Below are positions 36,146-37,644 of a stretch of DNA of 64,000 bases, one piece after another; positions within the stretch are counted from its first letter, which is position 1, and the number at the start of each line of letters is the position of its first letter. This DNA comes from Spirochaetota bacterium (GTDB lineage: Bacteria; Spirochaetota; UBA4802; UBA5550): assembly GCA_040768125.1 (NCBI GenBank), contig JAXGNG010000001.1:1095318-1159317 (forward strand). Reading direction: 5' to 3'. The position numbers and the translations under genes are program-made. The notes beneath the pieces are model-generated. The model was given only the letters and a program-made list of their open reading frames with translations. It did not search any database and was not told where the DNA came from.

Positions 36146-36442
36146 TCAGCAGCACCCGGCGTCTCCGCCGCAGCCGCATGATTCGTTTCCCGTTATCATG
36201 CCGTTGATGATGGCCGTGGCGCATCCCACGCCGGATGTGACCGCGATGGCGCCGAAGTCGCAGTTCAGGGAGCAGGCGCCGCATTCCATGCAGAGGTCGC
36301 GGTCACGGATAGACGCCTTCCCGCCACTCATCTCGAAGACGCCATGGGGGCAGACCTCGACACAGCGGCCGCACCCGGTGCACCGTACCTCGTCGTAAGA
36401 CAGGGTTGCGACGTTTTTCAGGTATTTCACGGGAGCCCCCAT
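36146..36442 (-). CDS. hgcB: HgcB, 2x[4Fe-4S] ferredoxin of the mercury-methylation pair
   Basis: 98 aa; two CxxCxxCxxxCP motifs (CTGCGRCVEVCP, CMECGACSLNCD) and the diagnostic C-terminal vicinal cysteines ...GCGGDAGCC. Overlaps the hgcA 3' end by 16 nt. Confidence 0.8.
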   Translation of the reverse strand: MGAPVKYLKNVATLSYDEVRCTGCGRCVEVCPHGVFEMSGGKASIRDRDLCMECGACSLNCDFGAIAVTSGVGCATAIINGMITGNESCGCGGDAGCC

Positions 36443-37644
36443 GTCTGTAGTTTATGGAAAACAAGAAATATCAACGCGCCGATGGCCCCTGTGACATATA
36501 CGGGCAATGAGAGTTTCAGTTCCCGCCTCACCCCGGAGGGTCCCGTATAGGTGGAGGCGCCGGTGAACTGAAGGGCCAGGTATGATGACAGAAGGGGGAA
36601 GATGATAAGCGCCGAGATCCTGTACGTGAATGATTCGCCGCTCAGAGACGTGGCCAGGACAAGGGGCGCGATCGCCGCGGCCCCGACGAGCCACCCCTTG
36701 AGGGCGAAGGACCTGAAGGGGATGAAGGGGAGGAGGGCCGGGGTTACGATGGCGCCGGTCCCAATCGCCGTGAACAGAAATAGAATGTAGGCGCGGCCCT
36801 CGTTCCATGCGGCCGCGAAGAGTATTCCATGGGGCTGGAGGCCGAAGAATGCGAGGATCGCCAGTGAGGCGATGACCCCGTATTTCACCGATTGACGGAA
36901 CTCCATGGGCGTGAGGACCAGGCGGTCGGCGAGGCCGAACCGCACCCGGCGCATCGGGGGATCTGCGCGATAGCCGTTGTCCACGTAGGAGATGATGTCC
37001 CCGGCGTCAACCGGACCGAAATATACCTTGAATCCGGTCGCGCGCTTCACCTCTGACGCCCTGACGCCGGGGGCGCCGAGCTGGGGCACGATGATACGCC
37101 GGTGGGAGATCCGCTCCGCGAGCCGGACATCCCTGATGCGGTGTACCAGTTCCGCCGTGCCGAAGGTCCCCTTCCCCGCGGCGCACCATACGTTGATTCC
37201 CTTCGTGTCGAGGACCAGTATCCATGCGCTGATTGTGCCGAGGGCGCGCCGGAGAATGTCGAAGCTCAGCTTGTAGTTCGCCGAAACGAACACATCCGAC
37301 GTGGAGTCAGGATCGCCGAGGGCGTAGAGACCCGGAGAGACATCATACTTCATCCGGAAGGAACCGGTACGGGCGCGAATGTGTCCCCACCGGTCAGTGG
37401 CGGTCCACTCATGAGTGACCCTGCGGACACTATCACTCCCCGAGACAGCGTGCACGGGCCCGCGGCCCGGAGCAAGAAGGGCGCGCGCCGCCTCGTGGAG
37501 GGTCCCGGGGTCTGGTGAGGCGAGGCCGGTGGCCGGTGTCAGCGTTTTACCGGTGCTGGATGATAATAATGCTTGTCTCTGGCGTGACGGGTTCTGTTCC
37601 ATTTGATTCCGCTGTCGTTTCTTTGATATTTGGCTAATTAGCAA
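36427..37644 (-). CDS. hgcA: HgcA, corrinoid protein of the mercury-methylation pair (CFeSP-like domain + C-terminal TM domain)
   Basis: Diagnostic cap-helix motif GINVWCAAGKGTFG (N[V/I]WCA[A/G]GK); upstream GLYALGDPDSTSDVFVSANYKLSFDILRR matches HgcA; 4-5 C-terminal TM helices. Start uncertain: track uses TTG 37644; likely shorter, with ATG 37602 or GTG ~37455 as alternatives. Confidence 0.85.
   Translation of the reverse strand: MLISQISKKRQRNQMEQNPSRQRQALLSSSTGKTLTPATGLASPDPGTLHEAARALLAPGRGPVHAVSGSDSVRRVTHEWTATDRWGHIRARTGSFRMKYDVSPGLYALGDPDSTSDVFVSANYKLSFDILRRALGTISAWILVLDTKGINVWCAAGKGTFGTAELVHRIRDVRLAERISHRRIIVPQLGAPGVRASEVKRATGFKVYFGPVDAGDIISYVDNGYRADPPMRRVRFGLADRLVLTPMEFRQSVKYGVIASLAILAFFGLQPHGILFAAAWNEGRAYILFLFTAIGTGAIVTPALLPFIPFRSFALKGWLVGAAAIAPLVLATSLSGESFTYRISALIIFPLLSSYLALQFTGASTYTGPSGVRRELKLSLPVYVTGAIGALIFLVFHKLQTWGLP

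Follow-up and report, generated by a model that had tools for sequence, protein, structure and literature searches.

A predicted hgcAB gene pair and its putative ArsR-linked operon in an uncultured Spirochaetota chromosome

The locus described here raises the question of whether two overlapping genes of a Spirochaetota bacterium encode the mercury-methylation proteins HgcA and HgcB, with which anaerobes produce toxic methylmercury, and, if they do, how and for what purpose the pair would be expressed next to a set of arsenic-resistance (ars) genes. The window, i.e. the whole stretch of DNA that was analysed, comprises 64,000 nucleotides of contig JAXGNG010000001.1 (assembly GCA_040768125.1, positions 1,095,318 to 1,159,317 of the forward strand). 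The initial annotation, made from the sequence alone, had placed an hgcA-hgcB pair at 36146-37644, and this claim is borne out at every sequence-level criterion in current use, namely the profile models, the NVWCAAGK and CMECGA motifs, and the fold. Taken whole, the explanation that we consider very probable is that an uncultured Spirochaetota bacterium carries the two genes on its chromosome as orthologues of hgcA and hgcB, that their products would work by the mechanism proposed for Pseudodesulfovibrio mercurii ND132, and that they would belong to an operon linked to ars genes. Both hgcAB in Spirochaetota and the link with arsenic are already described; what the present analysis adds is a concrete regulatory prediction, based on a conserved promoter and inverted repeat that are common to hgcAB and a canonical arsR-arsP operon.

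The hgcA and hgcB genes

The hgcA gene (36427..37602, minus strand) encodes a protein of 391 residues from ATG 37602, as judged by profile and Pfam searches, an AlphaFold model, a Foldseek comparison and the conservation of the start. The open reading frame (ORF) of 405 residues originally described (36427..37644, minus strand) is present, and the cap-helix motif attributed to it was found as GINVWCAAGKGTF. NVWCAAGK occupies residues 137-144 of the 391-residue protein, and its cysteine, Cys140 (Cys154 in the 405-residue ORF), is the sole cysteine of HgcA. The motif agrees with the cap-helix pattern N(V/I)WC(A/S)(A/G)GK, whose cysteine is Cys93 in ND132, and is carried by 79 of 80 related loci. 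The consensus protocol, in the part cited here, counts NVWCAAGK among six high-stringency HgcA motifs (PMC10087281).

Profile searches, which had been proposed as a check, were run with the equivalog hidden Markov models (HMMs) of NCBI. The HgcA model (NF040863, HgcA_corrinoid; a curated NCBIfam equivalog model with a cut-off of 275 bits) gave 392.3 bits (E = 1.6e-117) over model positions 1-322 of 325, and the HgcB model (NF040864, HgcB_ferredoxin; cut-off 99 bits) gave 119.2 bits (E = 5e-35) over positions 1-93 of 93. Because both proteins score above the curated cut-offs over practically the whole of the models, their identity is far beyond chance. In Pfam the pair matches nothing more specific than CdhD and Fer4 domains.

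The C-terminal domain with multiple transmembrane (TM) segments that had been noted in HgcA was seen in a hydropathy scan, in which residues 242 to 386 contain five hydrophobic segments. Structure prediction, the other computational check suggested at the outset, gave a corresponding picture. The AlphaFold model, built on 116 homologues, has a mean predicted local distance difference test (pLDDT) value of 84.9 and a predicted template modelling (pTM) score of 0.78. It consists of an alpha/beta corrinoid domain resembling its counterpart in CFeSP (corrinoid iron-sulfur protein), followed by a bundle of five long helices (residues 224-254, 262-289, 299-317, 325-349, and 355-387), and the pLDDT values of these five membrane helices are mostly >90. 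The top match in a Foldseek comparison with the PDB library was the HgcAB entry 9a0b_A (E = 5.7e-20, 39% identity, 324 columns), which is a computed integrative model and not an experimental structure.

The TTG codon that opens the 405-residue ORF had been suspected to lie too far upstream, and this suspicion proved justified. The TTG (37642..37644, minus strand) does lie within a palindrome, as reported: it is located inside an inverted repeat, in the interval that separates the -35 box of a conserved promoter from its -10 box, where it belongs to the spacer with its extended -10 element (TGC). It was rejected as the start on this ground and because the 14 residues that it would add are not conserved. 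ATG 37602 is the conserved start, with the beginning M-(E/K)-Q-N kept in the four closest orthologues (78-83% identity), and the resulting 391-residue product is identical to an existing NCBI protein (P0001), which is encoded on a contig of 1.74 Mb. The N-terminal tail of HgcA (residues 1-59, encoded at 37426-37602 on the minus strand) contains no cysteine, and its residues 1-47 are disordered in the AlphaFold model. A CC or CxC motif of the tail has been lost in this protein and its three closest relatives, and the loss has left Cys140 as the only cysteine.

The hgcB gene (36146..36442, minus strand) encodes a dicluster ferredoxin, which has 98 residues if translated from ATG 36442, as in the ORF described at first, or 94 residues if translated from GTG 36430. 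Two CxxCxxCxxxCP motifs had been attributed to it. The first [4Fe-4S] motif (Cys21/24/27/31, CTGCGRCVEVCP) has this form, but the second (Cys51/54/57/61, CMECGACSLNCD) ends in CD. An aspartate at this position is ordinary, because the residue after the second cluster motif is proline in only 26 of the 74 HgcB homologues encoded beside hgcA, and glutamate, alanine and aspartate occur in 19, 16 and 7 of them, respectively. Cys74 lies 13 residues past Cys61, a spacing common to 71 of the 74 homologues. The other cysteines are Cys89, Cys91 and the terminal pair Cys97-Cys98, and the protein ends in ...DAGCC, in line with the reported C-terminal GCC. According to the summary of the ND132 mutagenesis cited here, the two cluster motifs, Cys73 and the C-terminal cysteines of HgcB were required (PMC7305189). 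HgcB also contains CMECGA, a form of C(M/I)ECGA, and is encoded by a gene overlapping hgcA; the co-occurrence of NVWCAAGK and C(M/I)ECGA on one contig constitutes the high-stringency definition of hgcAB in the cited part of the consensus protocol (PMC10087281).

The overlap of 16 nt between hgcA and hgcB is true for the ORFs as called but is possibly an artefact of choosing the longest ORF. Homologues of hgcB start (MKYLKN...) at the residue aligned with Val5, which corresponds to GTG 36430; this codon has GGGGG directly upstream and forms a 4-nt overlap (GTGA) with the hgcA stop. The real overlap may thus be 4 nt instead of 16, and the overlapping arrangement suggests that translation of the two genes is coupled.

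The observations described above support an intact and typical hgcAB pair with all catalytic and structural hallmarks, and the organism is predicted on the basis of its sequence to be a methylmercury producer. The window pair resembles that of ND132 (DND132_1056/1057) in the two-gene layout, NVWCAAGK and the five TM helices of HgcA, and in the two [4Fe-4S] motifs and the C-terminal CC of HgcB (Cys94/95 in ND132); the spacing from Cys60 to Cys73 in ND132 equals that from Cys61 to Cys74 in the window. It differs from the ND132 pair in the disordered, cysteine-free N-terminal tail of HgcA (~58 residues) and in the two extra cysteines of HgcB (residues 89 and 91).

By analogy with ND132, HgcA would be a membrane-anchored corrinoid protein in which the cap-helix residue Cys140 ligates the cobalt. 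The two [4Fe-4S] clusters of HgcB would reduce the corrinoid to Co(I), and the reduced corrinoid would then be methylated and pass the methyl group to Hg(II). S-adenosylmethionine (SAM) was described as the methyl donor to the corrinoid in vitro, with subsequent transfer of the methyl group to Hg(II), in the cited portion of a biochemical study (PMC11588087). The sections cited from the paper that summarises the mutagenesis propose that the C-terminal cysteine pair of HgcB and Cys73 deliver Hg(II) and remove CH3Hg+ (PMC7305189), and Cys97/98 and Cys74 would be the candidates for these two steps here.

Several points speak against our assignment. The cap-helix stretch has pLDDT values of 71-72, and the model therefore gives no confirmation of its geometry; a low value is expected at this site because the cofactor is absent from the model. 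In the structural alignment, no more than 39% of the residues are identical to those of the ND132 HgcA model. A CC or CxC motif, absent here, is present in the N-terminal tail of 72 of 97 HgcA relatives that have a tail of at least 25 residues. According to the cited part of the consensus protocol, no Spirochaetota had been shown experimentally to methylate mercury as of 2022, and the hgc+ organisms tested experimentally by then belonged only to Desulfobacterota, Firmicutes, and Euryarchaeota (PMC10087281). The presence of hgcAB and its transcript level are, in the published passages drawn on here, no predictor of methylation rates. In favour of the assignment, the cited part of the protocol states that all tested organisms with a non-fused hgcA did methylate (PMC10087281).

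Promoter, inverted repeat and downstream ars genes

The intergenic region between hgcA and the divergent fprA gene has diverged among related loci except for one ungapped block, which is kept in seven loci, down to 56-62% HgcA identity. The block reads CTTGAC(A)-N17-TA(A/T)(A/T)T(A/T/G)-(G/A)CCAAATA, and its -10 box is TATATT in loci L005 and L014. In the window it corresponds to a predicted sigma-70-type hgcA promoter (37635..37663, minus strand) with the -35 box TTGACA at 37663-37658, a 17-nt spacer ending in TGC, and the -10 box TAATTA at 37640-37635, so that a TG dinucleotide stands one base upstream of the -10 box. An operator-like inverted repeat, TATTTTGC-N6-GCCAAATA (37627..37648), was identified by a repeat search and by its conservation, and brackets the -10 box. 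It is enclosed in a longer repeat, ATATTTG-N17-CAAATAT (37626-37656), for which the chance expectation in the window is 0.04. When 85 loci were searched with a regular expression, the core repeat was found only upstream of hgcA, in L001-L005, L084, and L085, and all these loci carry an orthologous ArsR gene after hgcB. In L014 the sequence upstream of hgcA matched just the wider promoter pattern, its left arm being one base shorter, and the same promoter layout appears there a second time, with a more degenerate left arm, before a separate arsR-arsP-thioredoxin operon.

Downstream of hgcB, four genes follow on the minus strand. The first, arsR (35785..36132), lies 13 nt behind the hgcB stop (36133-36145, containing AAGGAGG) and encodes an ArsR/SmtB regulator of 115 residues (NF033788, 80.1 bits against a cut-off of 55; PF01022 HTH_5, 47.2 bits). 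It is followed by a gene for an ArsP-type permease of 432 residues (34431..35729; Pfam ArsP_1, 244 bits), for which ATG 35729 was taken as the start in place of TTG 35738 of the ORF track, and by a gene for a Thioredoxin_3 protein of the "ArsE" type with 79 residues (34177..34416; PF13192, 99.7 bits). The name ArsE for the thioredoxin of organoarsenical resistance operons follows the cited parts of Gionfriddo et al. The last of the four is acr3 (33079..34164, from ATG 34164; TTG 34173 in the ORF track), which encodes an arsenite efflux protein of 361 residues (TIGR00832, 414.6 bits against a cut-off of 282.8). The ArsP and Acr3 products of L001 also have 432 and 361 residues, respectively. The gaps from hgcB through arsR, arsP and the thioredoxin gene to acr3 are 13, 55, 14, and 12 nt long and contain Shine-Dalgarno sequences, and no promoter-like block was seen in the longest of them (arsR-arsP, 35730-35784). 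The order hgcA-hgcB-arsR-arsP-thioredoxin is common to L001 and L084, and is visible in L085 up to the end of the contig within arsP. An arsR gene whose product shows 73-78% identity also stands directly after hgcB in the distant Spirochaetota/Leptospirales loci L004, L005, and L014.

Because the gaps are short and on one strand, the gene order is conserved, and the promoter and repeat are conserved and recur before the arsR-arsP genes of L014, we infer an ArsR-regulated operon. The genes hgcA-hgcB-arsR-arsP-arsE-acr3 would form one transcription unit from the TTGACA-N17-TAATTA promoter, and ArsR would repress this promoter, and hence its own synthesis, by binding the inverted repeat as the candidate operator. 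In the ArsR/SmtB family, regulators usually control their own genes from an operator that covers the -10 box. If ArsR represses the hgcA promoter, As(III), an organoarsenical or a different thiol-binding ligand would induce the capacity for methylation in this lineage.

The cysteines Cys37, Cys79, Cys80, Cys82, Cys107, and Cys108 of ArsR, of which the last five make up a CCxC (79-82) and a CC (107-108) motif, are kept in the hgcAB-linked orthologues. Cys37 belongs to an ERCVNDL stretch, which we take to be comparable with the motif ELCVCDL of Escherichia coli ArsR. Two observations weaken the regulatory part of the interpretation. Firstly, the -10 box is weak, and for this reason the promoter scanner did not list the hgcA promoter. 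Secondly, the effector site of ArsR is not readable from the sequence, the candidates being As(III), methylarsenite (MAs(III)), Hg(II), and others. The closest solved relatives of the protein are generic ArsR/SmtB structures, and the arsenic-responsive 6j0e matches only at E = 7.7e-5.

A genetic connection between hgcAB and ArsR is known from ND132, in which, according to the cited literature passages, an ArsR-like regulator encoded upstream controls hgcAB and responds to arsenic and S-adenosylhomocysteine. Like the window, ND132 couples the gene of an ArsR/SmtB regulator to hgcAB, in its arsR2-hgcAB unit, the likeness being one of gene arrangement. Operon C of ND132 (arsR5-arsP-arsE-DGC) contains the same arsR-arsP-Thioredoxin_3 module, and its DGC gene comes next in L001 and L084 but not in the window. 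Compared with these two ND132 units, the window has them merged into a single cluster on one strand, which begins with hgcAB and includes acr3 as an addition. The ArsR-family gene is located downstream of hgcB and is followed by ars genes in the window, whereas in ND132 it is located upstream of hgcAB with no ars genes nearby. The association of hgcAB with ars genes is published, with arsR downstream and acr3 or arsC nearby in metagenome-assembled genomes (MAGs) including those of Spirochaetes, in the cited parts of the respective studies (McDaniel et al., 2020, Fig. 6; Gionfriddo et al., 2020, 2022). A description of the conserved promoter and inverted repeat was not found in the portions of these papers drawn on here (McDaniel et al., 2020; Gionfriddo et al., 2020, 2022), and a term search of the available text of the 2022 preprint gave no mention of a palindrome (Gionfriddo et al., 2022).

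The alternative that hgcAB merely adjoins the ars genes, being transcribed alone or with arsR only, and that the repeat is the site of another regulator or a trait of promoter architecture, is unlikely, though it has arguments on its side. A GC-rich hairpin, CCCCCGTGACGGGGG, i.e. CCCCCGTGACGG(T)GGG, lies in the arsR-arsP gap (35742-35768, minus strand) without a T-run and could attenuate read-through. It is kept in three of four loci (the window, L001, and L084, not L085) and might serve to stabilise or attenuate the transcript where the hgcAB-arsR half adjoins the arsP-acr3 half. The ars genes that follow hgcAB-arsR are arranged differently in L014 and L005, and the promoter and terminator scans were uninformative, the search for intrinsic terminators bounding the operon having performed no better than on shuffled sequence. 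Against separate transcription stand the short same-strand gaps without an internal promoter-like block. Against a site for another regulator stand the strict co-occurrence of the repeat with an orthologous ArsR in the 85 loci, the degenerate copy before another arsR in L014, and the general preference of ArsR/SmtB proteins for operators over the -10 box. A scan of the whole window at the Rfam gathering thresholds for a cobalamin riboswitch or other RNA element near hgcA gave a tRNA-Arg only.

Farther upstream, TTGACA-18-CAAAAT (37697-37668) was the best candidate of the promoter scanner near hgcA. It was rejected in favour of the promoter kept in seven loci, since its -35 box is half of another palindrome and its -10 box is not kept in L001. 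The palindrome in question, ATTGACACGGGTCAAT (ATTGAC-ACGG-GTCAAT, of the TTGAC-N4-GTCAA type; 37683..37698), is located in the region that separates hgcA from the divergent flavodiiron/flavorubredoxin-like gene (37851-39038). It is kept in the four closest loci, and L005 also has one, with another spacing to the hgcA promoter. The palindrome presumably resembles sites of the CRP/FNR family. It was rejected as a significant motif, with one occurrence against 1.13 expected at one mismatch, and was not assigned to hgcA.

Beyond acr3, a Phd/YefM-PIN toxin-antitoxin pair (32367-32974, minus strand; PhdYeFM_antitox at 32741-32974 and PIN toxin at 32367-32765) separates acr3 from an arsC gene of the low-molecular-weight phosphatase type (31785..~32255, minus strand, with an approximate start; Pfam LMWPc, 78.8 bits). 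The ars cluster appears to have been interrupted by the insertion of this pair, because arsC comes directly after acr3 in the closest relative, L001. A near-consensus promoter, TTGACA-17-TATATT (33025-32997, minus strand), was found directly upstream of the pair. L001 (11471-13098) and L084 (4005-5629) carry genes for DGC (PF08859), a hypothetical protein and DsbD_2 between the thioredoxin gene and acr3, and none of these is present at this place in the window (34164-34177). Along the region shared with L001 (8031-14193 there, 33079-37602 in the window), the identities are 83% for HgcA, 95% for HgcB, 93% for ArsR, 97% for ArsP, 95% for the thioredoxin, and 96% for Acr3; this uneven divergence reflects either a faster evolution of HgcA at this locus or a mosaic history of the region. 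On the other side of hgcA, genes of metal or efflux type adjoin in both the window and L001, namely a weak CDF match (39080-39763, minus strand), MntP (39791-40399, minus strand) and an MMPL/RND-like transporter of 1185 residues (40730-44287, plus strand).

Native function and related protein families

The position of hgcAB at the head of an ars cluster raises the further question of what the pair is selected for. It is improbable, in our estimate, that these are true hgcAB genes selected for arsenic or organoarsenical handling or for other corrinoid chemistry, with mercury methylation as a side reaction and the place in the operon reflecting the function. This explanation would account for hgcAB being promoter-proximal to arsR-arsP-arsE-acr3 and sharing its operator type with a canonical arsR-arsP operon. 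Among 80 species-level loci, at least 34 have ars-like genes no farther than 8 kb from hgcA (ArsR-like in at least 26, acr3 in at least 19, thioredoxin in at least 9, and arsP in at least 3-4), these counts being lower bounds because many contigs are short. In ND132, as described in the cited passages, hgcAB is induced by arsenic and a knockout is more sensitive to As(V), and a 2026 preprint reports, in the part cited, halomethane dehalogenation by mercury methylators. On the opposite side, no methylarsenicals were detected in ND132 cultures according to the cited passages, most hgcAB loci have no ars neighbours, and co-regulation could come from an accident of gene order fixed in one lineage.

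The more specific notion that HgcAB works in this Spirochaetota lineage as part of an operon that detoxifies arsenic or organoarsenicals under the control of ArsR is very doubtful, and a direct role of HgcAB in arsenic metabolism is unsupported. In such a pathway a thiol-bound metalloid might, for instance, be methylated in a corrinoid-dependent reaction, and ArsP or Acr3 might export the product. If it existed, mercury would be methylated incidentally by a pathway that arsenic induces, and this would bear on an old question, namely what hgcAB is "for".

Under the preferred interpretation, in which the genes are orthologues of hgcAB with a mechanism of the ND132 type, the locus adds one more predicted methylmercury producer to Spirochaetota, a phylum whose hgcA genes are often abundant in anoxic waters and sediments. 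The promoter and repeat suggest that hgcAB is induced in this lineage by arsenic or by some other thiol-binding ligand. If so, the ArsR-hgcAB link of P. mercurii ND132 would extend to a second phylum with a different gene order. The defined DNA site makes arsenic-linked regulation of hgcAB testable, and this matters because the abundance of hgcAB genes and transcripts poorly predicts methylation rates.

Finally, we give almost no credence to the possibility that the ORF encodes a non-methylating relative, either one of the fused HgcAB-like proteins or an AcsC/CdhE-type subunit of the Wood-Ljungdahl CFeSP, and regard it as largely refuted. Three observations could be cited in its favour: Pfam detects only the generic CdhD corrinoid domain (residues 101-220 of the 405-residue ORF), a sequence search of the PDB for a solved HgcA returned CFeSP entries only (E ~1e-9), and the databases give many of the relatives the label "acetyl-CoA synthase subunit gamma". 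These labels are older automatic names, and the newer names in the same clusters are HgcA. The CFeSP gamma HMM (cut-off 306 bits) gave only 66 bits and the HMM for HgcAB-like fusions (NF043039; cut-off 285 bits) only 184, both failing where the HgcA model passed. The placement of the protein among HgcA sequences was judged from this ranking of HMM scores and from its nearest neighbours, which are HgcA proteins of Spirochaetota and Nitrospirota. The initial annotation had pointed to a cysteine in place of the threonine of CFeSP, and in a pairwise alignment the cap-helix cysteine indeed stands opposite a threonine of the Carboxydothermus hydrogenoformans protein.

The likeness to the large subunit of CFeSP (AcsC/CdhE; PDB 2h9a, 2ycl, 4c1n, and 4djd) consists of the Rossmann-like corrinoid domain and the position of the cap helix, over 125 residues only and at 25-26% identity. 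Unlike HgcA, CFeSP bears a [4Fe-4S] domain at its N-terminus as well as a TIM-barrel domain, and it lacks the membrane domain. The fused HgcAB-like proteins (e.g. Q8U2U9 of Pyrococcus furiosus) have cap-helix, TM and ferredoxin elements in common with the window genes but combine them in a single protein, whereas hgcA and hgcB are separate genes here. Tested hosts of the fused proteins make no methylmercury, as stated in the cited part of the protocol (PMC10087281).

Host chromosome and inheritance

The window is chromosomal, as nusA, infB, pnp, glyS, and a gene for a class A penicillin-binding protein are present. Its PNPase is ~80% identical to proteins of "Spirochaetes/Spirochaetota bacterium" entries. 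After the closest orthologues, the next HgcA relatives (55-63% identity) belong to MAGs of Spirochaetota, Leptospirales, and Nitrospirota, and the best HgcA match among GTDB species representatives has 62% identity. In Spirochaetes RBG_13_51_14 and one other MAG, the HgcA and PNPase relatives are located on contigs whose length is the same for both proteins (79,920 and 116,188 bp in the two cases). Because these relatives share contigs of the same size, the data suggest that the linkage of hgcA and pnp is conserved and that inheritance is vertical. Recent horizontal transfer was considered and rejected, since the GC content of hgcAB (0.63) matches that of the window (0.61) and HgcA and PNPase co-occur on the contigs of relatives.

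Some other features of the window were recorded. Four ORFs of 300-372 residues have no Pfam match (E<=1e-3 to 1e-5) and may not be genes (16841-17743 and 17809-18927 on the plus strand; 59708-60676 and 60677-61603 on the minus strand). An ORF of 326 residues with rve and HTH_38 domains (3053-4033, minus strand), adjoining the nusA-infB-pnp block, is probably a transposase of the insertion sequence type. Genes for multi-PAS histidine kinases and response-regulator hybrids are unusually dense (21743-24001 on the minus strand; 44547-47144, 48090-50135, and 50132-51682 on the plus strand), and a GGDEF response regulator and a methyl-accepting chemotaxis protein are encoded at 2131-3030 and 28420-30012, respectively.

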